64,000 nt of DNA from Negaprion brevirostris (taxonomy: Eukaryota): the NCBI GenBank assembly GCA_030324005.1, contig JARDVH010000084.1, forward strand, positions 92,346,450 through 92,410,449. Reading direction: 5' to 3'. Shown piece by piece: positions 24,100 to 56,805 of the stretch (positions are counted from its first letter, which is position 1; each line of letters opens with the position of its first letter). The position numbers were made by a program, and so were the translations under genes. The notes under the pieces were generated by a model, which had not been told where the DNA came from, searched no databases, and saw only the letters and a program-made list of their open reading frames with translations.

Positions 24100-25859
24100 G
24101 AAGTGTCTCTGCGCTTTTGTGAAGGAACAGCATGCAATTGCATATTCCATCCAGATGATATCCTTAACCAGATGATCATAATGTGCAACTTGTGTTAAAT
24201 TTCTTAAGATTCCTGAAGATTCTTCCATCCGGAGTTTTTTTTTTGACTTATGAACAGAAATCAAATAAATGTTAACTCAGGGGGGAAATAGCAATTAAGT
24301 CTTAATGGGTATTTGAATCTCAACACGAATGCTGTGAGTAACATAGTTTTTGTGGAAAATTGGCTGATAGTACTTGGCAGGAAATTGGAGTAGTAATCAT
24401 AATTTAACCGAATTGCAGACCAGTTTTGAAGGTCATATGTAATTAAAGTGCTGCAATTTGTTGAGATCTAAGTCTTAAAAGATATTCTGCATGGAAGGAT
24501 TTTTTTTTTTGTATTACGTCCTCAGGAATGGATTAGTAATATAGAAGGGGGAGGTAAAATGCACTTCTTCCGGAGTTGTCTTTCTGATCCTAAGGCAAAT
24601 CGGCAGTGTTTCAAATTCCACCAGCAGCCATCAAGGCAAAAGATCGTGAAATTTAGCATCAATCCCAACGTGATATCATTACATATTCGTTGATACAAAT
24701 TTCATGCAGAGTTCCTGCCACGCCGGCTCCGTGAGTGTCCTACCGCTCCTTCTAATGTTTGTGACGATATGTGTAGTGTACGTATGTTCGTCCTGTAGTT
24801 TCGTATTTGCATGGTGATTGTCGAGACTCCAATTTATTTTCATCACAACGCTCATCAGAAATATTTCCTGCTTTACCATGCGTACTGGTGTTGCTGAAGT
24901 GTTTATATGTTAGCAGTTAATCTGTGTTACCGCATTGTTACCATCAAATCAATGGGATTTAGATCAGGAGTTCCAGGCCTAAAGGTTATCAGAGCAAAGC
25001 TGCAATAGAAGACTTCCACAGCAAATACGCGAATGGCCCTTTTCAGTTAGTTTGCGAAGGAAACACGAAATTTGACCAGTAAGTAAGGATGAACATAAAG
25101 TCAAAAAAAAAACGACAATAATTGGGTGGCACGTGAGTTTCCATTGGAACCTAATTCGGCTACAGAATCAGCGGACAGAGTTGAAATTAAAGGGCCGACT
25201 AAAATTACCTCTATCTTGGTCAAAAAAAAATGAATATTAAAGTAACATGGCGCCATTTAGGAATGAGTGCACAGCCTATCTGGCAACGACAGGGCAATCT
25301 GTTCTTATTAATTGTGCGAGAAAGTTTACATGGTGTAATTCTAAACAAAAGTTGAACTGATAACAAGAAATAACTCAAAATCAATATGGATTCGATAACA
25401 GGAAATTATGTGTGAATTGCTTCATTGATATCCCTTTTGGTTGTTTAACAATGATTTGACGTGGTATTCGGTTACTTTCCCCAGTTAAATCAGCACGTTT
25501 CGATGTCATCCAAAATATGCCAATGCCTAAAGTTGATAACGAAAGTGTGGGACCATGTTTCATTTCTGGATGTGTATTCGTATCTCGCTTGACTCTCCTG
25601 GAATCGACGAGTATGTAGCATGCCCACCGTCACCCTTCCAGAATTAACGGCAGAGAGCTGAAGGAGGGAGCCTACAGTGTAAACCGGCGTTGCTGAAACT
25701 GCACCTACATCTGTATTGAGATCGATTGTGTGTAGTTTATCTATCCTGCGATAAATCACCGCTGTGATTAGTCGCTGTCTCGACGTGAAACTTCGTCCTT
25801 CAGTAAAGAGTATTCAAGGACATGCGGAACATGTCTATAATGGGGTTTCAATCATGCAG
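24100..25859 (-). pseudogene. Ferlin exons: C2F (25476-25859; 24931-24999; ~24100-24246)
   Basis: IDMFRMS vs VDMFPMD; FNW just before a GTAACC donor, as in GNFNWR|; FALITF..LMVTMR| vs FIFPF..CTIAKK|; LTQVAHYDHL vs LTLQIWDADHF. Confidence 0.65.
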
Positions 25860-25966
25860 CTGAAATTATGGCATTATTATAAAATTCTCCGTTTAATTAT
25901 GGTATATTATAATTTTTATCTACGTCATCAACCCTTATGCCTGACATGAATACATGGACATACGTA

Positions 25967-27597
25967 CCTATGAATTCTTCTTGCTGTGTGCCTGCGACTG
26001 GAACGTAAGAAAATCATGAGAAAAATAAACACAAAAAAAAAAATGGAGAACATTTTTCCCCTGGATCAATGTAACTATCTGAAAAATGTAAGCAAAAAGA
26101 TGTTCCCTACAGCAATTCGTAAACACGTCAGTCCAACAATAATGCCTTTAGAATAGTGAATATCACGAAGTCAACAACATCTCCTTGGCAACCTTTTTGG
26201 TGCTCTTCCACGCAAGTTAACATTCCCATAATAGTAATTCATACATCGTATTCTTTGAAAATACGTTTCTTAAACCCATAATGAAACTGGAAAATCTGCC
26301 ACTTACTTGTAACTTGTTCTTTGGATAGTTTTTCTGTAGATATAAGACAAAATCAGAAGTTTGTCGAGAACAATGTGACAACAGAACATTAACCTGTACT
26401 GACGAGTTTACCAATTTTTAGTGACACCCTTATTCACGATGTTTTCAGAATGAACATTGTGCATAAGGTTGGTTGCCAAGGAAAACAATACTACTTGGAA
26501 AGATTACATAAATTGCCTTCATTCAAACCATCAAACACATTTCTTCTTAAAATATTGCCAGTAAGATTAGTGCAGCTCTGCGTATTGATGTTCATTAAAG
26601 CGGCAACATATTTTTTGTTCAGGCAGCAAACACGCAAATTGACTGTTCGCTAATGTAACTTGCTAATGCAGATAAGTGAAGGTTTCCTAGAGTTAAGCCG
26701 TATACCGCAGATAAATGTTCAAGGCGAACTAAGCAAGTTAATGGTGGAAAATAAAAAAAGAAAAATCAAGATAAATTTCAGAAAAAAAGTATATATTTTT
26801 CAGATAACAAATCTCACCAGCGTCCGACAATTTTGTTTTCAGGTTCATAATTTCTTAAAAACAAAGTCAGTATGCATATCACATGTTAGGAACTGTCAAG
26901 GAGGTTTGCGTGTTCTGACATGAAAACAACAAAATAAAAGAAAATGTCAGCAGGTCTGACAGCATTTGTGGAGAGTGAGGCTGTGTCAATATTTCATGAT
27001 TCATATTTTATAGGGCGTATCGGAAGTCGTTAAATAAGAACACAATGTGTTAAATCTATTTTTGTCTCAACAGATGCTACCAAACCTGCTAACGTTTTAC
27101 AATACTTTCTGTTTTAAACAAAGAGAAAAGTTGTGCCGCTGTTCAATTATTTTGAGATACATTAATCTTGTAGTGGTCGTTATAAAACTTTCATGAAATG
27201 TTCATTCATTTGAAGAGTCCACACTTCCACTTGGAAATAATCATTTTATTAATTTATAGAAAAAAACATATTCGGAATAAAACGTCAATCTGTTGTTTTT
27301 CAACATAACATTATTCTGAACGAAAATAAAATGGAGTTCATCAACTTTGCTGCTTACATTATTCTTCACTTATTCTAGAAAGCAAACATTTAACACCAAC
27401 AAAATACGCATATCATGGCTTGTTGCAAACCGATTTTGAATTTTGTGGCATAATCAATGCAACAGTTCAATTATGAATGCAAAAATTGAAATGTGGCATA
27501 TATTTCACATTTAATGCAACTTAATAACCGTCCATGTCCTAAATTTACTTTTTGATGTTTTGAGCAGGTGTAAAAGAACATGTTCATGTTCCAGTTT
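25967..27597 (-). pseudogene. Ferlin exon cluster: C-terminal C2E and C2E-C2F linker, including a 27-nt micro-exon at 26307-26333
   Basis: CEIYATF vs FDIEASF; QIDV vs KIDL; RKPSLI vs MKPSQI; VEEH..RH..WTDV vs EH..RHWEDI; AGTQQ vs PGIEQ; several canonical splice sites. Confidence 0.6.
26920..27115. repeat. Penelope-type imperfect inverted repeat (hairpin)
   Basis: Arm agcaggtctgacagcatttgtggaga pairs with tctcaacagatgctaccaaacctgct. Confidence 0.7.
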
Positions 27598-27769
27598 CTG
27601 CACATGCATAATATTGCACTGCACTATGCTTGCAGCTAAATTTATTTAAGCTCAATTTCCGTTTATATTAATTAATTTGAAAAAAAAAATTCTGCACCTT
27701 TATTGGACAAAAATTACACTATTGAACCTCTTAAAATTTATCNNNNNNNNNNNNNNNNNNNNNNNNNGA

Positions 27770-28620
27770 CAATGAGAGAGATAGATAGTGGTAAGTCTGT
27801 GTGTTCGAAAAATAGAGTGATGACAATCTTTCACTGCGAGACAGTATGTTTGCATGGTAAAAAGTGCATGAAGACTGGACAGAAATATTTAGGTTAATTG
27901 AACGGAAACATAACTGTCAAAATATGTTACAAGTCAGGGAATGCGAAATTGCCTATTTTCAGGAAGAATCGGCATAAGCACAGCATCAAATAAGAGAGGA
28001 ATTTCAGATCTCGAAAGGCAGAGTGACCTGCTTAACCCAATACATGAAATGCAATTACAGTGCCAGTAGAGCACGTATTTAGGAAAGCTTAAGCAATATT
28101 ATCGGCTTTTTCTGAGTAGCGCTGAAAATAGAAGTAGAGCGAATGAGCTTCAATTGTTCAGGTGGCCAGTGGGAGCCATTTTGGATGACTACATATTGTG
28201 CATGGTCACGTTATTTAATGAAGGGTATAAACACCGTGGAAGCAATTCACCGATGTCTTATCGTTATATTAGGAAGGGAGGGACACGCTCGCCTTCAATC
28301 TGTCGGTGACCATCATAAAATAAGTGAACTGACTGGGTATATAAGTTTCTGAGTCGTCTCGATAAGGTGCAGTTAAAACAGATTTTTCCATTTATGGGGT
28401 AATCTAGAATTAAGATCCGTAGTTCGTCNNNNNNNNNNNNNNNNNNNNNNNNNNNNNNNNNNNNNNNNNNNNNNNNNNNTGAAAAGATGATGCAAATAGA
28501 CCTTTGAAAAAGATTACTTCTGGTAGAGTGGACAGACCTGTGGTAAGTAAGGTGTGTTTAGGTTATCGTTGTTACCCGGTTTGAATACAGGACCGAATAC
28601 AAGGCTTGAATACCGACTTC
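27770..28620 (+). mobile_element. Degraded CR1 3' portion
   Basis: CETVCLHG remnant; YCAWSRYLMKGINTVEAIHR vs YCVQFWSPYLRKDI.ALE.VQR. Confidence 0.65.
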
Positions 28621-28924
28621 AGGGTAGGATCAAAGCACGTACGCCCGGATCAAACTGGAGGGTCTACCGATCCTTCTGCTGCCGACCTTCCTGCTTCTTT
28701 ATTGCAAGCTGTGAGCTTAGCTGATCGCAATAGACCCGTGTGGAGATTACATACCAGAATCTTTTTGCAATAATTGTCTCACTGAAAATCAAAGTGGCAG
28801 ACGGTTTATTTGTTTCCACACGTTATCATGCATTTTATTTTACAAACTTTAATTGACACTGTAACATCAAACCAAGTAGAATAGATTAGTTGTACACAGA
28901 TGAGCTCACTCATTGCGCTCAAAG

Positions 28925-29040
28925 GCTGGACGGCGGCTCAATGGTTGGCATTGAAGGCTCTTGCGCTAGGGGCTCCAGCTTCAATTCAGGCCGTATGTGG
29001 AAATTATATAAGCTGCCCGTGCCTGTCTGGGTTTCCAACG
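28925..29040 (+). mobile_element. V-SINE 5' part, degraded
   Basis: ggcggctcaatggttggcatt..gtgtgga-like..gggtttcc. Confidence 0.6.
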
Positions 29041-29593
29041 TAAATGGATAAGATGTCCTGACAGAGAATCAATGCTAATACGATGGACAGAAGGGAGTAT
29101 TTCTACTCTATTCATCTGCAGAAGGTCAGCTACGCCCAGCAATACTACTTTCCTTTGAACTGAACTGCTTGATGACAATTTCAGCGTTCTTAGTTCAGTT
29201 TGTACTCTCTACAGTGAACATCTCTTTCAGTCAACGTGATGTGTGTTTCTTTGAAACAACTCCTGCAAAGAGCAATCACCTTTATGTTTCAATTCCACAG
29301 CAATTGATATTTTTTTGGCATCATAAAAAAAATGGCGATGAAACAGGACCTCGTTTATCTCATGTGAATACCAAGAAAGATTCAAGACCACCAAGAAATA
29401 CCAAGAAAAAGTTAGGACTAATCGTTCAGGGCCCACAAACGTCGAATATTAGAACACTAGGGAGAAGGGGCAAGTGAGATAAACGTTGAGGTGCCAGCGA
29501 GGGAAGACCACAGAAGAAAACACTTCTTTGTGAGTTTAGAAATACGGTTCATTTTTATTTAGATAAACGTGAGACTTTAGACATTGATTTGCA

Positions 29594-29835
29594 TATAGAA
29601 CATAGAACATAGAACATAGAACATTACAGCGCAGAACAGGCCCTTCGGCCCACGATGTTGCGCCGANNNNNNNNNNNNNNNNNNNNNNNNNNNNNNNNNN
29701 NNNNNNNNNNNNNNNNNNNNNNNNNNNNNNNNNNNNNNNNNNNNNNNNNNNNNNNNNNNNNNNNNNAGTAAGGCACGACCTACCTGCAACAAAACCATGC
29801 TGGCTGTCTCTAATCAATTTATTACTCTCCAAATA
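29594..29835 (-). mobile_element. Young CR1 spanning a gap
   Basis: (AGAACAT)n tail; YLESNKLIRDSQHGFVAGRSCLT. Confidence 0.9.
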
Positions 29836-29926
29836 ACTATAAAAATATGTGAAAGGCAGAAATGGTTGATGTACTTCAAGGGTAATTTTTAAAAAAATCA
29901 TAAATCCAGCCAATGGTCTACAGGTT

Positions 29927-29968
29927 GATAGATCGAGAGATAGATCGAGAGAGAGAGAGAGAGATAGG

Positions 29969-30008
<40 letters not shown>

Positions 30009-30027
30009 CAGATCGATAGATAGACAG
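29927..30027. repeat. Compound (GA)n/(GATA)n microsatellite
   Basis: Visible directly in the sequence. Confidence 0.95.
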
Positions 30028-30119
30028 ATGCGCTGACCTGCTCGTACAGGCAAAAGAGATAGCGTCCCGATTTGTGTCTTCAATCAGCAAAGCAAAAAAA
30101 AAAATGTTCCTCTGCATAG

Positions 30120-30380
30120 CGTATTCTGCACTTTGGGGAAGAGAGCAACATTACAAATGGATCGCTCATAACAATATTTCTGCCTATAATATAATGTAAA
30201 TCATTTAATTCCTGAACGTTGGTTCATCTGGCAAAACCAGGAAACACAATTAAGGTGGCTTGCAAAGATTCTTGATTGAAAAAACCATGATGCTTCATAA
30301 CGAATAATCATCGTGGGACTGTTCATGTTCCATTTAATGATTCATGTGGAAAACAAACGCATTGCTCAGTCTGCGGCAAC
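30120..30380 (-). pseudogene. Ferlin exon: N-terminal part of C2E
   Basis: Acceptor TTTTGCAG|; PTMIIR..ASHL..MSDPFVML vs PINVLVR..ATDL..KADPYIAI. Confidence 0.65.
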
Positions 30381-30479
30381 CTGCAAAACGTTGATGCAAC
30401 ACTGCATTTGCTGAAAAAGATACAATTTCATAAAGCTTAGTTTGTGTACACAAAAACGAAGATTGCTTGCTGAACATGC

Positions 30480-31800
30480 CTTGTCTAGAATGGTGGCCGT
30501 GGGAGCTGCAATATCGATAGAACTGACTGCCAAATTATCATCACAATTTTGTGCAGGAATGAAAATCCACTATTTGGAAATACCCACAAATGTCAAAACA
30601 ACAACACATAACTCAGGAATATGTCAAAATCGCTCATTCAGCGAGTGAATGCTGGGGCAAGGATTGCGGCAAATGGTGTCAGAGTGCAAGTCTTGGGCGA
30701 TGACTGTTTCCCTGAGGATAACATTCAAAATAAGCAGATGAAAAAGAAATTGATTGCGATAAATGAAATTTATATATATATAAAAGAAAAGCATTACAGG
30801 TGTATAAAAGAGAATGTGGAAAAATACAAAGAGCTCCGTGTGAACGCATGGTATTTACAGGATGAATCATACAGATGCTGGGTAATTCCGAAATTACAGG
30901 GATGACATATTAGGAAGTAAGTTGATACTGGTGTAATTTCTGAGTCTACATACCAAAAAAAACGAATGTTTTTTGTTTAAAATATGCTAATAAAATTTTA
31001 AGTATATACACGAGAGCGTTTTTGCGACTTAAATTTTACATCATCATCAACATGCAGTCGAGGGGGCAAAAATGTGAGATAGCCCTTCAGGTGGTGTGTT
31101 GTAATTTTTCTGGTCTTTTTAGGATACAATTGATAGAAAATATAAATATTAACTGGAGTGTTGTCAGCAGATTGTTCGATGTCAAAAGTGATGGAAAAAC
31201 TTTCTGGATAATTAGCATATTGCATTCGAAGAGGCTTAGTGAATTAAATGGAAGAGAAAATCAAGAGAAATCCTAATAGTCAAGCAAGATTTTATTTTAA
31301 ATCAAGAGTAGTGTCATATGAATACGGCCTCAAGAATAAACATGACTTGTTAACATTGGAGTGTTAGATCTGTACACGGTCTGCGACGTGGCTTCACCCA
31401 TTTACAAATACAATGAACTAAGATGGTTCAGCTCTGATTTCTGATTATGTTAAAACAACAATAAATACAGTGTTATGCATGCAAGAAATATGTACCAAGT
31501 GTAATTTGATGATCTACGGTAGCGTTTCCTGCTCACTCAGAGTGTTAGGAATCTTTAAAGATCAACAGGAAATGACGAAAAATGCTATTAAGAAAAGTAT
31601 GATATGTTATGAGAGCAAGTTATCTTAAAATGCAGAAACAGTTAGTGAAAGCTTCTACATATGTAAAAATCGCAGCAGAGTAGCTAAGGCAAACATTTAT
31701 CATTTAGAGGGTGAGAATGCGTATCAATAACTGAAATTATGAAATGGTCGAGACATTGAACAGGTCGCTATTGTGTAGCTATTGTGACAAAATGAATAGT
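30480..31800 (+). mobile_element. Highly degraded CR1 (endonuclease/linker region)
   Basis: NAWYLQDE vs TETWLQE; YESKLS..SESFY linker remnant. Confidence 0.55.
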
Positions 31801-32530
31801 ATACTCCTCTCACATAATTAACACTCAAGGAACGCAAGAAGATGAGCTTCCCTTTCATAATCAATTTTAACTGTGTGCGTACGTGAAATAGTACCATCTG
31901 CCTGTCGCAATTTTATTGCCTAATTTAAAATAGCCACCTGGGACTCTCTCTTTAAAATAACAAGTAACACTTTATTTTGTCTAACAAACAGTGAACAGGT
32001 TAAGTAAACGACAAACAAACAGGATAAATCAGCATTTTATATTCGAAGAGATATTCGGCTTAGTGAATGAAATGGAAGACAAAATCAAGAAAAAGCCTAA
32101 TAGTCAAGCAAGTTTTTTTCTAAAATCAGGAGTAGTGTCATATGAATACGGCCTCAAGAATAAACATGACTTGTTAACACTGGAGTGTGAGATCTGCACA
32201 CAGTCTGTGACATGGCTTAAATAATAACAATTCTGACTTATTACCAATAATAAAATATAATTTTTAGTCACATTAAAAATGCAGTCAGATTTGTCGACTT
32301 CCTGGAATCGTTTTGCTTCTTTGATTTTGCTCTTGTGTCTTTTGAGAGGAAATAAGGCTTTCTCTTGAAACATATATTGTGGCTGTCACACTGGCAGGAA
32401 GTTATCTGTTTGCATCTCTCTAGCTGTGAGCTATGGCCTTAGTTGGTGGAAGATGCAATGGCTGTTTTGTGACATTTCGGAGCTGTGAGCTGTAGCGTTT
32501 AAACTCGCAGTGGCATACCAACATTCGTAC

Positions 32531-32930
32531 AATAAGATTGGGTCACAGGTCATCAAAACATCAAAATCCAAATCCGATAGCCTGCTGATTTTCAAATGCC
32601 TATTTCAAATTATTTGGTTAAAATAAAATAAAAACATATTCTGGTTCAAATACCTGAAATCTGTTACCAATGTAATCCTAATGTCGCCTGATGCCTTGTT
32701 TCAGTCTGAATTGGATTTTAGCACCTGTATTCTTTTTTATATATACAAACAAAACTCCTTTGCAGTCATCGCCCTTTTTTTAAAAAAAACAACTGTTTCA
32801 CCCTTTTACAACACTAACTTTGAAACATCTCACCCTTTCGGTAAAGAAAATGAACCTTCGTCATAAAAAAAATGCTTCATGCATTTTCCTCTTTTAAAAT
32901 CGCAAATTGCATCCAGAATCATATTGATCC
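32531..32930 (-). pseudogene. Ferlin exons preceding C2E (~32834-32930; 32654-32724; 32531-32599)
   Basis: SFSLPKG vs TFNLLRG; DYIGNRFQ|GT followed by HLKISRLSD vs IVGRFK|G and GLFKIYPLPED, with the intron at the homologous position. Confidence 0.65.
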
Positions 32931-33069
32931 AGTGTCAGCTGGATTGGGGGGTGGGGGTGGGGGGTGGGGATAACTATGTGAGGTTACAGGAGTAGGGCCT
33001 GGGGTGGTCATTGCAGATTTGTTGGACTGAATGCCCTCCTTCTACACAGTAGGATTTCATTAATTCTTT

Positions 33070-34685
33070 ATATGATTAAAGGCAGACAAGCCCCCTTGCC
33101 CTGATGGAATGTATCACAGGCTCCAAACAAAATGGTGGGGAAATTGTAAACGCATTTGTTGTAATTTACAAAACGTTGCTGCACTCTGGGCCATTCTTGC
33201 AGGTTGGAAAACAGCAAATGTAACACCATTAGTTACAAAGGGAGGTAGACATAAAGCAAGAAAATATTGGTTGGGTAATTTAACATGTGTATTGTGGTAA
33301 CTTCTTCAGTCTATGATCAAGGACAAAATAGTGGGACTTCTGGGTGTGAGTAATCCCATTAGGATGATGCAAAGTGAGTTCATGACAGCCATGCCATTTT
33401 AAACTCGTTTACTCCAATTATTTCAGGACATTCCCAGCAGAGCTTGCTGTGGTATATCTGGATTCCCAGAAGATAGTCAACAAATTTCTGCACAAAAGGC
33501 TGTTGCATATGATAAAGTTGTATAGCATAATGACTAATGCTCTGGCATGGGTAGAGGATTGGTTAACTAACAAAAAGCATAAATAGGGTAAATTGAATTT
33601 TTCCTGATTGGCAACCAGTGACGAGTGTTGTGCCTCAGTTATCAACATTGGAGCCGCAATTGCTTGCAATTGACCAAAGTGTTTGTACTTTCGGAGAAAG
33701 TGCAGTGTGTCAAAGTTTGCAGATGACATTAAGATGAGTTACAAAACTAAATGTGCAGAGAACACTCAACGTCTGCAAACGGATACAGTTATTCGAAGTG
33801 AGTGTACATGGGTCTGTCAGATTTGGCACACCTTTGGTAAATGTGAGATCATCCATTTTTGTAGGATCAACAGAACAATGGCCCATTATTTAAATGCTAA
33901 ATGTTGCAGCTTGCTGCTGTGCACAGGGTTCTGGCTGTGTGTGTGCATGGGGTTCGCAAAACGTTGGTTTGCAGGTGCAGCAGGTAATTTGGAAGGCAAG
34001 TGGAATTATGTCCTTCATGGCTGGAGGGAAGGAGTTTAAAACTGGGATGTCATATTGCAGCTATATAAGGCGCTGGTGAAGCCACACCTGGAGTACTGTG
34101 TAAGGATTTGGTTTCCTTATTTAAGACATAGCATACTGGCACTGGATGGGGNNNNNNNNNNNNNNCAGGGGTGGGGGGACTTGGTGAGGGGGTGTAGATG
34201 AGATTCACTAGGTTGAGTCCGGATTTGACTGGGATGGCTTAAGAGGAGGCATTGCTTCGACTGGGACTGAATTCCATGGCATTTAGAAGAATGAATGGGG
34301 ATTCTGTGGACACATTATCATGAAGGGTATAGATAGATAGAAACAGGGTGATTATTGTCCCTGTCAGTTAAGCTGAAATCGAGACAATGCCTCAACGTGA
34401 GGGGGACAAAATTTGCGACTAATTTGAAGAGGAACTCCTTCAACAAAAATGATGTGATCTGTAGAATTCCCTGCTCAGTGAAGATGATGAAGCTACTCAT
34501 TGATTTGTTTTACGTTCAGGGAAAGATATATGTTTAAACAAAACGGGATTAAGGGATATGGTGAGTGGGCGGGTAAGAGGAGTTGAGTCCATGGAAATAT
34601 CAGTCATGATCTTATTGAATAGCGGGACAGGCTCAAGGTGCCAAATGAAATCCTTTTGCTACTATTTTTATGTTATTACGTTCTG
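33070..34685 (+). mobile_element. CR1 RT to 3' end
   Basis: WKTANVTPL..KGGR; VSKFADDIK; ALVKPHLEYCV. Confidence 0.9.
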
Positions 34686-34711
34686 AATGAGCATTGCACG
34701 TCATTACTTAC

Positions 34712-35815
34712 TGCTCGTTTGAAGCAGTTTTCTGCATTCTAATGGAAGATAATAAGAAACATTGCAGTAAATAACTGAAACCTCATAACGGATCAAACAA
34801 TTAAATTACAATGCACGAACATCATTAAATAAAACATGACATGGGAGGGAAATGTTTAATGCATTGCAATACATTGTTATTTTTCGGCAGTTACATATTT
34901 CAGTATTTGCCTAATTTNNNTTTTGGGGGGGGGGCGGCGTGCGTTGCAAGATGTCGATGTGTCTTTCGTATGGAAGCACATTATACCACGTAACCAACAG
35001 ATAGTCTCCTGAGATCGGAAGATCCTCGACGTGCAACTTGTGTCAAATTGCGGAAACAGAATTGCCTGATTCTGTCCACATATATTAGAAATTTGAGGGT
35101 GTTGAAAAATGTGTGGAAGAGGGAGCAATTGACAATTGCCCGAATGCACACACAACAGTTCTACCGTCGATGAAAAACGCGATGCTCATGACAGTCCGAT
35201 AAATGTTTTCCGCCAGGAAATGTCTCGCCCTCACCTGAGAAGGATCTGTAATGTTGTGGAAGGATCGATGTTTAAGTACATGTTGTAGGCTGGAGGTACA
35301 GACTTGATGGTAGTGATATCAATTTATTTCCATCATTCGGCTCACTAGGAACTTATTCCGTGATAAATGTTTGCAATTGGAGTCAAATGCGCTACACGTT
35401 GATGCATGGACGCTAAATTGTTGCCATCAAATCCACAGGAATACAAAACTTGAGCTCCAGGCTTAGAGGCAATTCTGGCACATGCGTGGTGCATTTTCAA
35501 AGAGGATTGATAGTTTAACTTTCTTGAAACGAGATTTTGTCTTTCAAGGTTATAATCAGACACTGTTTTCCATGTCAATAATTGAATGATTAGTGGTTTG
35601 CAAGAGGACATCATTTGGATAGAGAGTACACACATTACTATAATGAGAAAACAAGCAACACCAATCCACTAAATTAAAGATGAAGACATACACACAAAAA
35701 ATTAAAATATATCACATGACACCATTTCGCATTTGCAACACTTGGCAGGCAATCGACAACGAATCGTACAAAGACATGACAATCTCTGGTGGTCAACGCT
35801 GTGGGTAAAGCAGCC
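34712..35815 (-). pseudogene. Ferlin exons: end of C2DE, linker, WW motif and IY..LE exons (~35700-35815; 35235-35637; 34895-35071; 34712-34774)
   Basis: ALPT..PPEIVMSLYD/VVDC vs DLPE..PPLNIRVVDC; ICW..W..ASI vs LDWWSKYFASI; IY..PLE vs VYPKELE; donors CAG|GTGAGG and GCA|GTAAGT. Confidence 0.6.
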
Positions 35816-38735: not shown

Positions 38736-38809
38736 ATCTCGTTTGTGTGTTTTTGGGACATCTGAATTTCTAATGTTTATAAGTTATTAAAGTGACACAA
38801 AGAAGATTA

Positions 38810-44855: not shown

Positions 44856-45347
44856 CTGCGCTATTTTAAGAGCAGTATGGCTTAGTATACATTATTCAGG
44901 CAACTTATCCCATAATGCAGAGCACAAAAATTAAAATGTATGCTTACTCAGGGTTGCTACAGATTCAGTTGCTAAAAGAAACAGAAACAAAAACCTCATT
45001 GCATATTTTGTCACAGTTCATCAATGTTAAGATTACAAAATATAATCGCAGACATTTTAAACCAAATACATTAATTATGGTTATTTTTGTAAATTTTGCA
45101 CAAATCGCATTATAGTTTTTGCAATATCACACCTTCTTCTACGCATTGCAGACTGAACTTGCGCATTAACCTTAAGAAAATATTGAACACGGACTCCCAA
45201 GTCTATTTGTGTTTCTGATTTCCTGAGTTTTTCCCCATTTTAAACATAGTTTATGCCTCCATTCCTCTTTCCAAACTACATAACCTCATACTTTTCCACA
45301 TTGGGTAAAGAATTGGCAGATGAAATACATTCCCTTAATCCTGATAC

Positions 45348-45674
45348 ATCAGGGTTCTAAAGTTCCTGTATAACAACAACGTACGTAGGGCTTTGATCTG
45401 CCAGTAACTTGTTTGAAATAAAGTAAGAACATTATCATATATGGTGCCACGGAATGCAAAGCATGAGGAATGGCTGATACTGGAATAATACTCGACCTAC
45501 AAAATAAGGGGGAACTCTATGCGTGAAGCAACAGAAGTAGTGGTAAGGGGTCTCCTCGGTAGTTCTCCACGTCTTCATCCATGTGTTGCTCAACAAATTC
45601 TATGCAACACTGGATTGCACGTTTTGGGAAGAGTATTTTCAAAGTGGCCGAGGAGGCAAAGAATAGGCTCATAA
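45348..45674 (-). pseudogene. Ferlin exon(s): FerA
   Basis: AIQCCIEF vs LSCGCCRF; DQ..LRTL.C.IQEL vs LDRERLKSCMREL; AG acceptors before 45674 and 45496. Confidence 0.5.
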
Positions 45675-46065
45675 CTTAAATAAATTAACCAAATTAGAAT
45701 TTCATGAGTCGTTGTCTTGAAATCTATCGGGCGTTTTATCGCAACCAACATAAGGCACTTTGGAACAAAACAATGCAGTATGCATCAAGGACCACTGCAT
45801 CGACAAGTTTAAATAATTAAGCGTTGACGCAACTTGTGTATACAATATTGTGCGCCTAAAAGAACGCACACCAACGTCCACTACTAGACCAGAAAGGGCC
45901 AAAACAATGATCAGTATGGATGAACAACATTCTCTCTCCCAGCATGCCCACCACATGCCCCTCCACCAGCACCCTCGCCCCTCCCCTCCCCTCACCACTG
46001 CCCCTATAGACCAGCCAGTTAAAGAAATGTAAGGATCTTCACATAAGAATCAGTACATCATTTAC

Positions 46066-46454
46066 CTTCCAGCAGCTCCATGTGGTTTTTATGTTCTGCA
46101 CTACCGGTTTGACGATGAAGCGGCAAATGAATATTTCAACCAGCCACAATATTTCGCATGACGAAAATGGATTGATGAGCAACAATTCCCCATAAGTTGA
46201 ATGGTTCTTTTTCTATTTACACATTTTGCGAACGTAAAATTCAGGAACCATATGGAGGGACAAAATCATCGACAAAAAGGCGCTGGGGATGGTTGATGAG
46301 ATGTACCAACATCATGTCTTGTTCGTGGGAAGTGTGAAGCTGATATTTCAGTTCACTCGGCTCTGTGTTGTACTCCACGCCAGAAGAGTCGCATAGTGGG
46401 CAGAGACAGGGATGCTAATGAAGTGCTGCCTGATAACTGGACCCAATCAGACTC
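46066..46454 (-). pseudogene. Ferlin exon: linker preceding FerA
   Basis: SLASLSLPTMR vs otoferlin LASVSSTPPMR; donor AAG|GTAAAT. Confidence 0.55.
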
Positions 46455-47232
46455 CTTTAAGAGAATCTTAAACAACTGAACATCACTTAGGTTATGCAAA
46501 ATGCTATTGAGTTTGTGACAGTTTTTTTTTCCCCCCCCTGCTATATCTGCCAGGGGCTGAAGGAACAAATCCTAGACCTAAGCTTAAAACACATTTGCTT
46601 GGTATCTCTACCAATTTTCCATTCAAGTTTTCTCGTAGATTGATCTACGCACACATCTGTCGTAAGCATGGAAGCAACTTTGATATTTGTATGCAAACAT
46701 AGGTATTCAATAGGCAAGGGTTCCTTCTGTGAACTCAGTCGTTACAATTTGAGTATTCCTTCCATGAATTGTGCTGAACAATTCATTCAGGATTCAATCA
46801 TGTAAAATATAATTGCGCTCGCATGTAGTATACAGGAAAATTATTGGAATTTCAAATATAATTCAACCTTCAAAGTTTTGTTTCAGATTCTCAACACCAT
46901 TTTCACATAAGGCGGGGTTTCAAACAGTTATTACTATTATTATTTTAATCCAGCAAATGTAACAACGATTTGAAAATCTGTAATATTGTCTAAGCCTTAA
47001 CCAGTAGGATTTATTGCACTGGGTGTTTTATTGGTTGATTGAAACTCTCACTCAAATATTAATGTTTTCTTTAATTTACCATTATGAAGAGAAAATAAAT
47101 CGAAAACACGTGAAATGTATAGGCAACTTCCGCTGGCGACACGGCATTCATGACTGGGGGAAACGGTCCCGCCTGCGCTGCGAGGATCATTGTGAATAAC
47201 TTCGAAAGTGGAATTGTGTCGGATAAACGTAC

Positions 47233-47643
47233 TCTTTCGAATTCATAATGATTTTTGAATTCCATTACTGACCCCTTACATCAAAGCTTGTAGTTATAAC
47301 ATTCCGATGTTTCCACAGTGATAAAGCGAAGCATATATACCACTCTCGGTACTGTTGATAGAATAGCCTGTCAGTTGGAAGCAAAAACAAAACACAATGG
47401 TCCAGGGCAAAGCTAAAACAAACCTTCCGGTGGTTTGCTCGTTATTTCCAGACAACTAAATGTGAACAGGAGGGGCGTTTTGCAGTTGTCCTTATGTTTA
47501 TTTTTTAGATAGCATCCACCCCGTGAGATGTTCATCAATAATCGCAATTAACGTCGAGGTGGCCATTCAATAAAATAACAGTTTTGGCAACGTTTGATTC
47601 GATCCAAACTCAATGTTGTGCCTCCTGAGGCAACACGCCATTA
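47233..47643 (-). pseudogene. Ferlin exons: end of C2C and following segment (47424-47643 and 47233-47367)
   Basis: RLLMNIS..VDAI vs RLLLGLAVEIV; ETS..ML..MEFK vs EASMI..ITFE; strong acceptor TTTTGTTTTTGCTTCCAACTGACAG. Confidence 0.55.
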
Positions 47644-47659
47644 CTCGGTCGTGCAGTGA

Positions 47660-49200
47660 AAAAAAAAATACATATTCAAAATCACTGCCATTTCCTTATT
47701 TCCCATTATTCATTTCCCAGTCTCACTCTCTAAGGAACTAAAATCACTGGAGCTGCTCTTTTGTTCTTTATGGAGTTTTGTATTCTTTGTTTTTCTATTT
47801 CTTCTTAGTTTTCAATCAAACTCCAGTATCTCCCATTCTTTTTTTAAAGTAACCTTTTGCTGGTTTCTAAAATGTTTTGAATCTTCAGACCGAGCACTAG
47901 TCTTTGCAGCACTGTTTGTTTCTTCTTTAGTTTGATACCATTCCTAATTTCCTTCATTAGCCACAGATAGTGCATTCTTCTCACAGTGTCTTTCTTTCTC
48001 AATGTAACTTATCTTTTGTGGAGAGTTGTGAACTATCTCCTGAATTGTCTGTTAGTCTTTCTCTCCTATTAATCTATTTTCCTATTCCACTTTAATAAGC
48101 TTTGCCCTCCCACCCTTGTAACAGCCTCCATTTATGTTAAGACTCTAGTTTCAGATCCACATTTCTCACCCTCAAACTAAAAGTAAAATATTATCATGTA
48201 ATGATCATCTTTACCAAGAGGATTCTTAACTATGAAGTCATGAATGAATCTTGTCTCATTACATATTAGCAGATCTAAAATAGCTTTTCACAGGTTGATT
48301 CCAAAATGTATTGTCCCTTGGTACTAATGCCCCTAAACGTAGCTCATATTTGCTTTTCTGGAAAAAGAAATGGGCACAAATAATTTGTATTCTTTCCTTC
48401 CTTGTTAGGATACTGCTAGCTTTCTCACCATATTGTTAGGAACACACTAGTTTGTTTGATAATGTTCCTTAAGTACAAACTGATGTCAGGGAGCAAGTGA
48501 AAAAACATATTGCACAAGATTCTCTGGCCTCCCAGCCAATGGGAATTCCCATTGATGTCACCCCATGCTGGTAGGAAACCTACGGGAAGGGGTGCACTGC
48601 TGGCGGGATCAGGGATTCCTGCCAGCATGAATGGTATTGTCCCTTTGACACTTGTTTCAAAACTTAAAAACTTCTTCCTTTGAATTTCCTGTCTCTTTCT
48701 CTGAACTCTCAACTCCTTTCTGCTTTGTTACTTACCTTTGTCAAAAAAACCACAAGGAATAGGAACAGAAATAGGCCATTTGGCCCATTAAGACTGTTTG
48801 ACCATTCAATAAGAAGATATCTGATCTGACTGTGGCCTCAGCTCCTCTTTCCTGCCTGTTCCTGTTACCCTTGAATTCCTTGTAGATCAAAAATCGTCTA
48901 ACTCAGCCTTGAAAATATCCAATGACTCAGCCTTCACAGCTCTTTGTGGAAGACAATTCCAAAGACAAACAACCCTCTGAGAGAAAAAATTCATCATAAT
49001 CTCCATCTTAAATGGGAAACCCTTTACTTTGGCATTGTTCCCCCAGTTCTACATTTTCCCAAGAGGGGAATCATCCTCTCATAGTCTCACTCAGATCATT
49101 ATTTGTTCCAATATGATCACCTCACATTCTAACGAGCCTTCCCTCCTAAGACAACCCCATCGTCCTAGGAGTCAGTTAATGAACTTTTTCTGAACTCCTG
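47660..49200 (-). mobile_element. CR1 fragments (ORF2 linker 47660-48330; 3' end 48750-49200)
   Basis: ctgccatttccttatttcccatt; aggaataggaacagaaataggccatttggccc..ccattcaataag. Confidence 0.8.
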
Positions 49201-49989
49201 CATTTGCCCACCTGCCCTAACTCTCTCACTACTTTGCATTGGTTTATCCTCCAAGACCTGCCCTTGGGCAGTTTGCAAATTTTAACGACTGCATAAAAAT
49301 CCAAACTACTAACGCTTTTAAAAAAACTTATTTTTCTATCTTCTTCAATTCTTCTGCACCATTCACTAGCTGCAGATGGGCAGATACCCTCAGATCAGCC
49401 CCTCTCCTAATGCGAATGCTTAACCAGCCATGAGAAGGTCCACAGTTGAAGCTGAACTGCCTTTCCTCTACTGCCTGCAACCCGAATGTGAGAGATACCT
49501 TCTCCGGCAACTTGTCAAAGAGCAGGAACATGCTGCTGTAACTTCTTAAGAAATAGTTAAATTCCCTAACTCTTTGTTACAACAGCCGGCATTGAATAAA
49601 ATATGCCAGTTATATAGGCATCAAGAAGGGTTCCAGCACAAAACATTTGAGCTGCTATGCAACAAACACTGTTGGATACATTTGGATTCCAAGTATAGAC
49701 TATAACACTGGTAGATTTTTGTGAAACATCCTGAACCACAAGTAGATACATTAGACTTCACTGAAAGAACACCCTCTCAAGCTGCCAGCCTTTACTGCAT
49801 TCTGCCATTCCCTTGTACTGCCAGGCGGCCAATATGTGCCTTCAATGCTAAAGGACTTTTCCAGGATTTGACAAATGGGCTAACCACCTTTGGAGAGCCA
49901 ATTCAGCACTGCAGCTGGGATTAGAAGCTCCAGAGATATTCAGATCCCAAATCTCCAGAAACCAATTGAATATCAGTATTCAAAGAGGA

Positions 49990-51470
49990 GCAGCGCAGTT
50001 CTTCTACTGTCCTGCTCAACGGTTATTCATCAACCAACCTCACCAAGTACTCATTGTCTGGTAATTATTCTCATTGCTGTATGTAAGATGTTCCTATGTC
50101 CATGTAGGTTGCAGTGTTTTCTACATTATAGCATTGACTACATTTTGAAAGTACTTTGTTAGGACCCCAGTTGGGATTATAACTGGACTGAAATATCCCA
50201 GACTGGAACCCTGGCTTAACTGAATGTAACTTAATTTTTTTAAATCAAATGTGGAGGTGCAGTCACAAGACTGCTATATAGTTTTAACAATAAGAAAAAA
50301 ATCAGTAAACATAAAAAAGGATCATAATACACTCTTCCATTAGGTTAGCAAATACACACAAGTTTTAAGATTAGTATGAGTTACACAGTAACCTTAAGCT
50401 ACAATTGTCTCATGAATACACAAAGTCCTTTTGATGCACATTAGATACCTATAGTCAAATATACACTCCCCTCTGAGCCCAAATCAGTGTCTGTGGTTTT
50501 CTACTCAGCAGTCGCACCCGCCCCCCTCACCCCCGCCACCCCACCGATGATTGTCACATAAGAGTTTCCAAACTCCACTCCCAAAAACATGTTTTAAAAT
50601 CTTATCTCATAATAATATCTTCCCTTAGCAGTTTGCGTTCCGAATACCAGTCCAAGTTTTACAAATGGCACTTTCAAAGAAAGCTTCCGTTCCACATTTA
50701 ACAGCAAATCCAGTCCAGGATTTTACTCCAACCCCTTTAGGAATTTCTTTGTCTCCACTGCTGTGCAAACTGATTACAAATGTTTTAACAATTCCCAGAC
50801 TCTCATCAAAGTTACACCAAATGTTTCATCTACCTCTGAAATCTGCTATCCCATTTTAAATGTAGTTACAACCATTCTCTTTATAACTCAGAACACACTT
50901 CCCTGAATTCTTCTGAACAATATCTTGGTCTTTGTTCACTTAACTTCAGTCATCTTAAACATTCCTTCTGTCCCAATTCCCTAGTTATCTGAACTATGTC
51001 TTGCTCCTTCAAACGCTTGCATCTTTGCAACTCCTTTGTCCTATCCAGTTTCTCCTGGCAAAATTAAGAGCTGTTCATTCCTCACTCAGTTACTTGGCTC
51101 CAATTGCTCTGGCTTCCAGTTAAAACTAAGACAAAAGGAAGGTGGCCTCCTGTCCCAAGCAACGCCCCAGTTACTGCCATCTATTCTTCATGGCACAGGC
51201 CTCTCTAAGCAAAATAGAAACAAAGTTGGAAGTTAGCCAATTCCCACACACACAAACACCTTCTTCCAGCATTAACCTAACTATAGGTTTTACCCTTTCA
51301 GGTACAGAAATATTAAATTAAACCCACTTAAAACTATACCTTATTTCTAATGTTTACCAGTACAAATATGAATCCCCTAAAACTATCTTTGTTTCCCTCA
51401 CAACTTCTACATAACTAAATTAATTTGGGATATCCTGAATGTGGTGAATATAAAATGCTTTCATTTTCTT
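49990..51470 (+). mobile_element. Deu-domain-like SINE 3' part split by a solo LTR
   Basis: ctcattgctgt..ctacatta..gactacattttgaaagtactt [LTR] ..tttgggatatcctga..tataaaatgc. Confidence 0.65.
50157..51402. mobile_element. Solo LTR (1246 bp) with a 4-bp target-site duplication
   Basis: TGTTAGG...CCTCACA termini flanked by ACTT at 50153-50156 and 51403-51406. Confidence 0.85.
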
Positions 51471-52259
51471 TGAAAGGTCTACCAATTTATATTATGACAG
51501 TTAAGAATTCATAGTATGAAATAATATTACCTTGTCAAGATTTAATGCCATCCATAGAGGTGATGTCATTAACTTAAACCAGTCTCCACTGGTTACCAGT
51601 CTGGCTGCCCTATTGGAAATACTTTTCCATCATGAACTCAATCAAAACCCATCATAATTTTGAATAGCTCGATCAAATCAGGCCTTAACCTCCACTTTAA
51701 GGAGAACAATACCAGTTCCTCTACTTTCTTTGCATAACTGAGGCACCTCAGCCAAGGCATTGACGTCCCTCCTAAAGTCTGGGGCCAAGAAATGGACACA
51801 ATACTGGATGATCCATAATTAATGATTTATAAAGTTTTAGTAATAATTTCCTTGTTCTTATCTGTATCATAGGGATTCTGCGATTCTATGATTTATTTAT
51901 AAAGATCTTTACATTTTTTTTCAACAGACTTCTCAACTTGGACTAGCACCTTCAGGGACCCAATCACTGGTCTCTATTTGTGCACCCTAATTAAAATGGT
52001 TCCATCATATAGACACCTGAACAAGTTTAACATGGACACAAAAGCAAAGTACTTTCATTATTAAATTATAACCTTTTAAGTATAGGCAGAATAATCCCAT
52101 TTGTCAATACAAATGCAGAAGGTCAAGTTATNNNNNNNNNNNNNNNNNNNNNNNNNNNNNNNNNNNNNNNNNNNNNNNNNNNNNNNNNNNNNNNNNNNNN
52201 NNNNNNNNNNNNNNNNNNNNNNNNNNNNNNNTTAAATGTTGTGTGACTGATGACAGCTT

Positions 52260-55200
52260 AAACCATCTCTACTTAAGAAGCGGTGTATTGGAAGCGAATT
52301 GAGGAAACCTTAGCCGATAGCATATTATGAGAAAGAAACAACCAGTGTAAGTTTGATTATCTGCAAATTTGTAGCATGGTAAGAATTCGTTTCAGTTTGG
52401 AAGTTTTTTTGGTATGTTTTTTATTTAAAGTTTACGTTTTCAGAGAATGGACTTGTCCTACTCCAGCTGTACGTGCTGCAGGGTCTCTTGGTTACTGGTG
52501 GATAAGGACCGGCAAATATATATTATTTTAATAATTCACGTTCTTCAGTGTGTACTTGTAGTTAGTAAAAGCTAACTTCCATCGTAAGAAGGACCAGAAA
52601 TAAATGCTCTCGAGTAAGTTATGATAGTTGATAATACATATTTTTCAAACAGTACAATTTATAAGGGTAAGCAATGGCAGGACAAAAATCGTGCTTTATA
52701 TGGCAAGGTATGAATAGTTCCAATGCCGGGGAGATCGTATGTGCAGGGAGTGTCTCGAGCTTCATCATCTGGAAGTCTGATTTTGAGAGTTGCTGCGGTG
52801 ACTGGGAACACTAAAAAGCATCCAAAATGCAGAGTATATTATGGATACTAGGCATAGCGAGGTGGTCAGGTCGTAGGCTAACATACATAGGTACGAAGAG
52901 AATGACTGACCAGTTGGAGGAGCAAAATTACACGGCAGACAATACAGGATTCTTATGTGGCTATTTCCCAGCGAAGCATGTATACCACTCCTGATGCTAT
53001 AGAGGAGAATGGCCTGTTAGTGGGAAACAAAAACAACTCTTTTTTTTTTGCAGCATGGTTGGCTTGTTTGCACAAGAGCGAAATTAAAAGCGCTGTGATG
53101 CAGTAGTTGTAGGGAATCAAGTTTTAGGCGCCCATATGACCTTTTTGTGGCCACAAAAAGGAGACATTAGGGTGTTATATTGCCGACGGTAGTGACCCCT
53201 GCATTACTACCACGTGCGAGTTAAATACAAATGGATGTTCATATTGGATTAATATGTGATTGAAGGGATTGTGCGAGTGGGAAGATTTCAGATTTATTGG
53301 TCATAGCGAGCTGTTTGGGATGTACCCTGAAACAATACAAACTTAAACCTTTACACGTGGGCAGAATCTGAACTGACGTCACGGGCATTATTTTTTCCCG
53401 AAAGAATTGGGGATTGTTTAAACTCAAACAGCACGCGTATGACAAACTATACGATCAGCCACAGGATGGAAAAAATCAAAAAACAAGAAACTATTTGGGT
53501 AAAATAAGAAAAAAAAAGATAGGCCGTAAGCAAGGTCCAGAATCAAGTACAGCGACAGCAAAAAAAATAAAATAAAATCCTGAGTGTGACGAGTCAAGTT
53601 AGGAAAAAAAAACAGAAGTCGATGAATTAATATGTGGAGAGTCGCAATACCTCGCAGAAGTAATGACACAAATGAACAAGGAGAGTTCGGGTACAATGGA
53701 GATTCCAAACCTCCTTGTTGGGTTAACAGGAATAGTAAATATTTATGTAGCTGTAGACAACATTTTGGAAAGGCAAACTAAATTGAACCAAAAAGAAACA
53801 ATTGAGCTGCATTGCTGGTTAAAGGGGGAAAAAAAGAGAATAGTGAGGGACGGTATTTGCTTCGAAGGTTTGAAATGTGTATGGCCTGTGCTGAGTAGGG
53901 CAACGACCAAACAAAAACATTGCTTTATGTTATACAGACTACTGAAATTTACTGATGATTTTCTGAATGAAAGTAAACGAGGAATTTGTGAAACGTGTGC
54001 TCAAGAGGTATTTGTGATTCGGCTGAACTTCAATCTGCATATGGATTGGGCCAACCGATTTAGTGGCAAATGGGAACGAATATCTGGCGCGCATACAGTA
54101 TTTTTTTTTCGGACAACGGCGTTGATAAACCAACTAGAGAAAAGGGATCCCTCAATGGGTGTTGCGTAAATGAGAGAGAGAAAAACAAATAATGCTTTTT
54201 CATCTAGTTACACGACAACATCGCGGATATGTGAGCATTATTTGATATAATTGTTCATCAAGATGGGGGCTAATGGACATAATCCTGAAAGCAGAGTCAT
54301 GAATCTTAAAATGGGGAATTATGATGGTTAGAAGCGCAAGTTAACTCCGATAGATCGTGAAACGGTTCTTTACAAGATTATTGTAGAAAGGCCAATGCAA
54401 ACATTCAATGAATGGGTGAACTGCAACGATTGTGTTTTCCACTTTGAGGCTCAGAAAGAAAATTAGGCCAAACATAGGTTACATGATCAATAATAGACAT
54501 CACTAGATGCAAGGAAGCGGCATAAAACATGGCCAGATAGATAAACAGTATTAGGGTTGGGAACATGTTGCTATACTGCAACAGAAAACCAAGCGTTTGA
54601 ACTAGAAGTAGGTGTTCGGAATGACAGTGCGTTTCCTGCGAACATAAAAAAAAAATCCCAGTTATATGAACAGAAACACAAAATTGGTGAAGTCAGATAT
54701 AAATCCATTGCATTCGGAAAGATTGCAACTTCTCCCTGGAGACATAGAATCGTTGTTCAACTAAACGCACATGTTTCGCTGTCTTTGCAAAGGAAGACAT
54801 AAGTGACATACCAGCAATGCTGAGGCACATAGGGTTCAGTGAGAGGGATGTATTGAATGAAATTAGAATTAGTAGAGGAAAGGTGTTGGATAAATGCATG
54901 GGATTAAATGCAGGTAACTTTCCATCGCCTGATATTTCACATCCAGGAGTACTTAACGAAGTGCCTCTAGAAATAATCGATGCATTCTTGGTAAATTTAG
55001 AACATTCTATAAATTTTGAATTTAATCCTGTAGAATGACATGCAGGTGAGATAATAATCTAACGTTATGGGGAATGCACCGAAAAACAGGGAACTGCATT
55101 CAATTAATCCGAAGGTTGAGGTAGAGAAGGTACGAGAGACCGTTATCAATGATATAATAGCAGAACACTTTGAACAATAAAGTAAATTCGAAAAGTCGTC

Positions 55201-55395
55201 ATGAGTTTCGGGAAAGAAAATGATCTTGATAAATTTAGATTAATTTTGCGAAGATGTAACTGATAAGGTTATTGAATGTGTGCAAATTAATGTTTATATT
55301 TAATTTGAACCTTAAAAAGACTTTTGACAACGTAAAAATAAAATAGCGTGCGAAAGTAAAGCACATCAGATTGGCTGCATTGTCTCAAGATGAAT
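52260..55395 (+). mobile_element. Degraded CR1 retaining 5' part: ORF1 (zinc finger/coiled coil, esterase), endonuclease, start of RT
   Basis: MCRECLELHHLE ORF1; KCMGLNAGNFPSPDISHPGVLNEVPLEIIDAF; KKTFDNV. Confidence 0.8.
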
Positions 55396-55409
55396 AGGGA
55401 ACTGTTTAG

Positions 55410-55944
55410 CAGAAAAAAAGAACAGTACAGCACAGGAAACAGGCCCTTTGGCCCTCCAATCCTGTGCTGCTCGTTGGTCCAACTAGACCATCCGTTTCTA
55501 TCTCCCCATTCCCAGTCTGCTCATGCGACTATCCAGGTAAGTCTTAAACGATGCCAGCATGTCCGCCTCAACCACCCTACTTGGCAGTGCATTCCAGGCC
55601 CCCACCACTCTCTTTTTAAAATCATCCCTCTGACATCTGAGTTATACCTCGCCAATCTCACCTTCAGCCCGTGACCCCTCGTGATCATCACTTCCGAACG
55701 GGAAAAAGCTTCCCACTATTCATCCTATCTACACCCTTCATAATTTTGTACAACTCTATTAGGTCCCCCTCCTTCTCCGTCTTTCCAGGGAGAACAACCC
55801 CAGTTTACACAATCTCTCCTCATAGCTAACACCCTCCACACATAAGAACATAAGAAATAGGATCAGCAGTAGGCCATCTAGCCATTCGAGCCTGCCCCGC
55901 CATTCAATAAGATCATGGCTGATCTGAAGTGGATCAGTTCCACT
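55410..55944 (-). mobile_element. Two younger CR1 3' ends in tandem
   Basis: aaagaacagtacagcacaggaaacaggccc; acataagaacataagaaatagga. Confidence 0.9.
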
Positions 55945-56399
55945 NNNNNNNNNNNNNNNNNNNNNNNNNNNNNNNNNNNNNNNNNNNNNNNNNNNNNNNN
56001 NNNNNNNNNNNNNNNNNNNNNNNNNNNNNNNNNNNNNNNNNNNNTGGAATGCAGCTCTGTTCTATCACACTGGCTGTGTCAATGTTTTGCAACTTTGCCA
56101 TGCAGCTCCCTGTGCCGAGACATCATGGGCTGTTGTGGTTCAAGAAGGCAGCTCAGCGCTATGTCCTCAACGTCAATTACGGATGAACAATATTTTCTGG
56201 CCTGTCCGCAAAAATCTCATTCCTGAAATTTACGTTAAATAGTTGTTCCTAACAATCGGCTATCCACAGTTGCACACATTTTATTAATGCAATGTTCCAA
56301 TCGTCAGTAGGTTGTTCCACTTTAAATTGCCTAGGTCAGTTTCACAAAAAAAAATGACAGGCTGTCATAAATCTCCAAAAAGGAAAAAAAAAACGTGGC

Positions 56400-56805
56400 A
56401 GCTGGCATGAATACTAAAGTTGCCAAATGTAACTGGAATGTCCATGTCAATGGAAAGTGTTTCCATTCCGCCATTCTTAAAAAAATGCCAGGAAATAAGG
56501 GCAATTACCAGCGTTTTATGCCGTTTATCGAGGGAGCTGTGATGATTTGTGTATCGTCCATAACTGTAAGGTTTCATGTCAAAATGCATCAAGACTTGGA
56601 AGAGGTGGAAGCTTGGCTTCTTTCCTTGGGTTGATGCATTTCGACTCACCTGCTTCACTACATGAGGATTTGCGAACGGTACTTTTTTAAAACTCTAAAA
56701 CCGCAAGATTCTCGTTGCCTCCACTGCCTGGATGGTCGCCTCGTGGGACGAAGCTCTTTATTCTACTCAAAATTTAACTAATTACGCCAAGCTGGCACTC
56801 AACAT
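56400..56805 (-). pseudogene. Ferlin exons: N-terminal part of C2B (two exons separated by an 86-nt intron, 56564-56649)
   Basis: TIQAVEA..ANPHVV, donor CAG|GTGAGT, acceptor CCTTACAG|, then MDDTQIIT..GNCPYF vs otoferlin SITVIEAR..MDPVV..VGDDKKYT..TNCPYY. Confidence 0.7.

Follow-up and report, generated by a model that had tools for sequence, protein, structure and literature searches.

A stretch of the Negaprion brevirostris genome is very probably part of a live micro-exon locus for a coiled-coil and B30.2 protein

We predict with good confidence that a 64,000-nucleotide (nt) stretch of the 2.69-Gb Negaprion brevirostris genome (contig JARDVH010000084.1, here scaffold C84, positions 92,346,450-92,410,449; hereafter the window) covers part of a live coding locus from a cartilaginous-fish family of coiled-coil+B30.2 proteins without RING, B-box, Ig or, probably, membrane segments; the closest protein relatives of the window genes are those of cartilaginous fishes. 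Its coding sequence is carried by tiny minus-strand exons, 12 of which were hand-picked from 30 scored candidates by paralogy, order and site score, with the other 18 dropped as probable background; the site scores come from simple frequency matrices, not from MaxEntScan. Nine of the 12 form three tandem A-B-C units. Unit 1 comprises phase-1 exons of 30 nt (type A, 43856..43885), 27 nt (type B, 42171..42197) and 36 nt (type C, 39718..39753), with the type A exon, framed by AG and GTAAGT and open in phase 1, being paralogous to those at 34738 and 23876. Unit 2 has exons of 27 nt (A, 34712..34738), 27 nt (B, 28755..28781) and 36 nt (C, 26818..26853), and unit 3 likewise of 27 nt (A, 23850..23876), 27 nt (B, 9598..9624) and 36 nt (C, 7978..8013). 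The remaining three exons are found at 26307..26333 (27 nt), 25968..25997 (30 nt; chosen on site scores and an open frame, with no paralogue identified) and 1029..1055 (27 nt). Spliced in order, the 12 exons give 118 codons of a coiled-coil segment with no stop, versus 12 and 6 stops in the other two frames. The initial annotation had described exon remnants with wrecked reading frames but maintained splice signals; all 12 chosen exons are open, and the wrecked frames are those of the introns, such that the earlier reading mistook intron DNA beside tiny exons for decayed long exons.

The exon class stands out by length, strand and phase. Pairs of AG and GT enclosing 27 nt occur 11 times on the minus strand of the window and twice on the plus strand, against a mean of 2.5 (maximum 8) in 30 Markov simulations, which together with the plus strand served as background for both pairs and donors. 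Over the 624 kb around the window, 82 such pairs lie on the minus strand versus approximately 17-18 per length in the controls; 75 of these 82 are open in phase 1 and 40 in phase 0, while for pairs of 36 nt the corresponding counts are 27/33 and 9/33. The excess falls at 27 nt, and also at 30 and 36 nt, and not at 21 nt. Comparison of the three tandem units (nine exons) yields a pS of 0.68, a pN of 0.33 and a dN/dS of ~0.25, a signature of purifying selection among the copies, and identity between units is lowest at third codon positions (38, versus 52 at first and 55 at second positions; n=81 each). The conservation extends to the first six donor positions (44/54 identical at +1 to +6) and falls off in the adjoining intron (58/171 at +7 to +25). 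The donors (median score 8.4) are as strong as those of 11 control exons of this genome (8.1), and the splice sites are near consensus because they define coding exons. The inference of selection on splicing, and through it on a transcript, made in the initial annotation finds support, with the amendment that this transcript most likely codes for protein and does not derive from a ferlin.

The six donor 9-mers on which that inference had been built (at 44610, 56650, 43856, 26307, 34712 and 35235) are all present on the minus strand, yet they divide evenly as exon ends. Those at 43856, 34712 and 26307 close exons of 30, 27 and 27 nt, respectively, each of which has an acceptor and is open in phase 1; the other three lack any acceptor that would make an open, frame-preserving phase-1 exon. 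The donor at 44610 (44604..44612, minus strand) has no frame-preserving acceptor, is matched by five equally strong plus-strand sites and is absent from the paralogous introns, and is probably a chance intronic site. That at 35235 (35229..35237, minus strand), which also has no counterpart in the aligned paralogous introns, could close open candidates of only 55 or 11 nt, neither a multiple of three, and is again probably a chance site. At 56650 (56644..56652, minus strand) there is no phase-1 open exon, and we read this donor too as a chance site, with a first exon that is non-coding or alternatively used as the less favored reading. For these three (44610, 35235 and 56650, in that order), GT sites of equal strength number 6, 2 and 1 on the minus strand versus 5, 1 and 1 on the plus strand. 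Across the window, donors scoring at least 9 show a modest excess, with 33 on the minus strand, 23 on the plus strand and 19.7±4.1 in the simulations. An account of the donors as chance matches in AT-rich DNA, or of the odd sequence as an assembly error, thus holds for three of the six donors but is refuted for the micro-exons by the length-, strand- and phase-specific excess of AG..GT pairs, the stop-free spliced frame and the conservation pattern among the tandem units; as to the assembly, contigs of run X1 match long stretches with 0-1 differences, although X1 may be the assembly's own source. Taken as a whole, we regard this account as highly improbable.

Further sequence features in the window were noted alongside the exons. 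Two 67-nt minus-strand segments (47325-47390 and 52970-53036) are 81% identical. Each holds an AG..GT pair, 27 nt apart in one and 28 nt in the other, whose donor is weak; a stop interrupts phase 1 in the 28-nt copy, and the two are possibly one live and one dead micro-exon. The introns also contain self-complementary stretches at 9949-10081 (86%) and 26923-27115 (60%) and a direct repeat (31186-31394/32002-32218, 84%).

The initial annotation had placed several donors at intron positions of human ferlins, which would make the window a decayed unprocessed ferlin pseudogene with splice sites kept for a non-coding transcript. The donors are real, and the stretch 44745-44610 bears a loose by-eye resemblance to a FerB exon; however, the motifs GRFK and FNWR, cited as marking those positions, are absent from all three minus-strand frames, and the FerB-like stretch scores an E-value of 3.4 over 18 nt. 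Searches with tblastn using six type-I ferlins found nothing below an E-value of 0.55 in the window among the matches listed, which cover four of the six; five hidden Markov models (HMMs), made from 29 ferlins that represent all groups, did not score above the reversed-window control; and a Pfam scan of the putative exon at 44610 was negative for ferlin. DNA profiles of this genome's own FerB and Ferlin_C exons reach a best E-value of 0.22 against the window; they recovered 6/6 planted exons at 20% extra divergence and 2/6 at 30% (E<=0.05), which leaves some room for a ferlin remnant beyond ~30% extra divergence. Within that limit of power, tblastn, HMM and nhmmer searches detect no homology to the C2, Fer (FerI, FerB and Ferlin_C) or DysF domains in collinear window exons, and five ferlins aligned to the spliced window peptide reach z<=1.5. 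In contrast, FerB and Ferlin_C searches of the genome locate six ferlin loci, with intact FerB exons, all on other scaffolds, and the well-supported exons of the window are open and belong to another family. Ferlin ancestry of the window is thereby largely refuted, and a ferlin pseudogene is an extremely improbable explanation. At the otoferlin locus (L004, L005, L007; C25:75.32 Mb), we observed three matches to the Ferlin_C terminal exon within 2.7 kb, one of them unlike the other two.

The family to which the exons belong can be traced through its terminal domain. With the B30.2 exon at 91.196 Mb of C84 as the sole query, we retrieved RefSeq models from rays, sharks and one chimaera (XP_069775385, XP_038672308, XP_060706632, XP_078422387 and XP_042191567), whose automatic names are misleading and which presumably rest on RNA evidence, given how such models are made. 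Two of them are homologous to the spliced window peptide across the predicted junctions, namely the Narcine protein XP_069775385 (59% identity over 34 aa, z 6.2) and the Scyliorhinus protein XP_038672308 (z 8.6). The isoforms of the relatives are distinguished by blocks of 6 or 9 residues within the protein. Pfam recovers SPRY in all eight relatives scanned, a weak PRY match in four, and RING, B-box or Ig in none (0/8), while the maximal 19-residue hydropathy before the B30.2 domain is at most 1.48 in six relatives. A single-sequence fold of the Narcine protein, which is poor overall (pLDDT 51) and usable for its helices alone, shows long helices over residues 3-189. A weak protein database search with an alignment of the micro-exon peptides returned 125 candidates, none at E<=1, and the ESM Atlas offered only generic SPRY clusters.

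The same exon type is found throughout the 624 kb around the window, where open phase-1 candidates number 142 on the minus strand versus 34 on the plus strand, and in samples of C84 from 93.41 down to 91.20 Mb, about one third of which was read. The most upstream strong exon found has 75 nt (C84:93,405,636-93,405,710, minus strand), and no exon longer than 75 nt was found before the last, which is an intact divergent B30.2 exon at the array end (C84:91,195,602-91,196,120, minus strand); by eye, no long coding exon was recognized among the open reading frames (ORFs) of the 624 kb. Loosely extrapolated, the 2.2 Mb would hold 250-400 micro-exons. Dozens of PRY/SPRY genes make up the cluster in which the array is situated, and six further members of the same divergent B30.2 subfamily were noted, on scaffold C121 at 6.23, 8.31, 8.81, 8.85 and 10.95 Mb and at C84:93.461 Mb. 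Inside the array is a dead B30.2 copy (C84:91,621,352-91,622,017, minus strand), with open exons in the samples on both sides of it. Here (L095:1353-2018 and L137), the dead copy keeps a strong acceptor (8.5) and the broken remnants upstream of it keep strong donors, making this region the one place where the description of kept splice signals and wrecked frames fits. Downstream of the window (L023-L045; -33 to -150 kb relative to it), a family of 9-residue exons is repeated in tandem more than 40 times, the donor GTAACAT being conserved; some of the copies look live and many are dead. Splice positions in this family are 0.85-0.89 identical, compared with 0.72 for the exon and 0.48 for the intron, and stops are avoided (1/26 versus 5.6 simulated). 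Exons are being born and are dying in the array, parts of which are decaying. A ~55-codon open stretch ending in a stop within the array (L048 ~5735-5900, minus strand) was observed as a possible alternative terminal exon.

Several observations weigh against a live gene that runs from the window exons to a B30.2 domain, and some of these favor a reading in which the family is the same but the gene with the window exons has recently died or lost its B30.2 end, leaving young pseudo-exons or a rod without B30.2. The nearest B30.2 downstream of the window is the dead copy at 91.62 Mb, reached before the intact one, to which it has 68% DNA identity, and carrying 9 frameshifts over 494 nt; exon-like remnants immediately upstream of it are frameshifted or interrupted by stops; and in the 9-residue family, whose dN/dS is ~1.1, splice sites are lost in many copies: a search by similarity of the exon interior added 20 copies, of which only 7 keep both AG and GT. 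In the window itself, paralogue support within the 12-exon set is confined to the nine unit exons, dS between the units is 1.77 and thus near saturation, such that it speaks for past and not present selection, and the acceptors score somewhat below the controls (6.9 versus 9.5, p 0.13). Four other family proteins match the window peptide weakly or not at all (z 2.5, 2.0, 0.4 and -0.7), and the 134 kb covered at the 5′ end yielded neither a start codon nor a first exon. Against recent death, all nine unit exons are intact in frame and at AG and GT, with a probability of 0.02-0.003 for the splice sites at 10-15% divergence and of ~0.007 for freedom from frameshifts at the rate of the dead B30.2 copy, and therefore they probably did not die with it. 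Moreover, there are open exons sampled on both sides of the dead copy, and a rod without B30.2 would still be coding. Accordingly, we consider recent death or loss of the B30.2 end unlikely, and favor the live coiled-coil+B30.2 locus. The dead B30.2 and the broken remnants inside the array nevertheless leave two arrangements, a set of at least two tandem genes or a single gene in which the dead end inside the array is skipped, and between these two the balance is about even; equally even are the chances that the window exons and the intact B30.2, 1.15 Mb downstream, share one transcript.

The searches at the array ends bear on the missing domains. Neither IgV nor IgC domains were matched in 91.0-94.0 Mb or in the 134 kb at the 5′ end, where masked N stretches remain; no convincing candidate for a membrane-segment exon was found in those 134 kb; and RING and B-box are absent from the 36 ORFs scanned at the two ends of the array. 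A PRY domain at 91.007 Mb was considered as the gene end and rejected, being part of a separate RING-bearing TRIM. Likewise, Ig domains at 94.15 and 94.39 Mb were set aside as a 5′ end, because a further SPRY exon separates them from the array and they fall outside the compositional domain described below; by eye, these two Ig V-like exons (L124 and L131, at C84:94.39 and 94.15 Mb) resemble domains of the CD2/SLAM/CEACAM type.

The array coincides with a CpG-rich, homopolymer-rich and fast-diverging domain (C84 ~91.23-93.46 Mb) that includes the whole window (1..64000), and the composition changes at the array ends. The ratio of observed to expected CpG is 0.66 inside the array (708 kb) versus 0.30 outside (166 kb), and A/T runs of at least 8 occur 8.8 versus 2.4 times per 10 kb. 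That intronic repeats are far more eroded than the splice signals, as the initial annotation held, is borne out, and they are also more eroded than repeats outside the locus: the median divergence of one repeat family is 0.21 inside versus 0.155 outside (n=40 and 29, p 0.0014) and that of a second is 0.20 versus 0.146 (n=44 and 34, p 2.5e-6), a difference part of which could be explained by older insertions. In the repeats inside, CpG transitions are less frequent and transversions up to twofold more so. The same signature (CpG 0.64, 7 runs) recurs in the one 4-kb sample taken next to a family B30.2 of scaffold C121. Contigs of run X1, which behaves as DNA, reproduce the sequence; the 15 joints listed, of 22 in X1, are repeat-driven, none of these 15 has splice-site ends, and they have no bearing on expression. 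There is no clear transcription-linked strand skew. Our best guess is that germline hypomethylation, together with an elevated mutation rate along a very long gene, underlies the domain. Positions 48001-52000 of the window have 13-14 CpG per 2 kb versus 27-79 elsewhere in the window, and are probably a younger insertion that has yet to reach the local composition.

We propose that the locus would encode a rod through symmetric phase-1 exons of 27, 30 and 36 nt separated by kilobase introns. As the codon phase is identical at the two ends of every exon, exons could be duplicated, skipped or lost without a frame shift, and therefore the rod would lengthen by tandem exon duplication, as suggested by the three A-B-C units of the window, and would be trimmed by exon death and alternative splicing. 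The micro-exon gene is presumably expressed. Its protein probably forms a soluble, helical coiled-coil dimer with B30.2 at the end, likely originating from a butyrophilin cytoplasmic tail and, in effect, such a tail without the outer part. By analogy, an intracellular scaffold or ligand-binding rod acting in the manner of TRIM or butyrophilin (BTN) proteins seems an even bet as its function. Less favored is a cytoskeletal, tropomyosin-like role, as reported for the BG-derived zipper protein (PMC5938342, PMC4046983), and after that might come interaction with BTN tails or a structural part in the germline.

A bolder and rather doubtful conjecture is that the whole 93.41-91.20 Mb array is one ~2.2-Mb transcription unit of ~250-400 micro-exons, encoding a several-thousand-residue, length-tunable rod tipped by B30.2, and that the loci of the family have their own germline mutational regime (little CpG decay, ~2x transversions and homopolymer growth), which would follow the family to another scaffold and speed the turnover of the rod. 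Such a number of micro-exons would rival the exon count of titin. The short members of the family are already known, in RefSeq, under misleading automatic names; what is new is the ~2.2-Mb scale, together with a dead B30.2 inside the array and a mutational domain that coincides with it. Among the titles and abstract openings searched, outside subscription journals, there is no account of a coiled-coil+B30.2 family or of the mutational domain. A gene class of this kind is invisible to ORF- and homology-based annotation and reads as a pseudogene. It would extend the micro-exon coiled-coil design of butyrophilins and BG to a probably soluble B30.2 protein, on a megabase scale and within a shark TRIM/BTN cluster, and the sharp match of locus and domain makes it possible to test, in a vertebrate germline, the idea of a regional mutation regime the size of a gene.

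Among known systems, ferlins have nothing detectable in common with the array, whereas butyrophilins, found in the same B30.2-rich cluster, likewise use 27-nt phase-1 exons for a coiled-coil linker before the B30.2 exon. The butyrophilin at C84:89.48-89.51 Mb has IgV, IgC and membrane exons followed by five 27-nt phase-1 exons and then B30.2; butyrophilins thus differ in having IgV, IgC and a membrane segment, none of which was found upstream of the array, and few such exons. TRIM proteins, whose genes neighbor the array on the scaffold, share the coiled coil and C-terminal B30.2, but they differ in RING and B-box, which are absent in the relatives here, and in that the rod of the present family is built from micro-exons. 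The chicken BG/zipper protein has a long coiled-coil tail from many tiny exons that is varied by alternative splicing (PMC4046983, PMC5938342), with exons of 21 or 24 nt numbering 13-36 per gene (PMC4046983), and BG is described with IgV and a membrane segment and without B30.2 (PMC8813856). The micro-exon coiled coil is common to both, while the array has its excess at 27 and not 21 nt, has B30.2 and has no IgV that was found. The nearest counterparts are the chondrichthyan models labeled 'zinc-binding protein A33-like', 'TRIM39-like' or 'BTN3A1-like', which have in common with the array the divergent B30.2 (as much as 57% identity across the full exon), a helical N-terminal rod and a 30-residue unit; these models are 175-460 aa long, whereas the array here spans ~2.2 Mb with an extrapolated few hundred exons.

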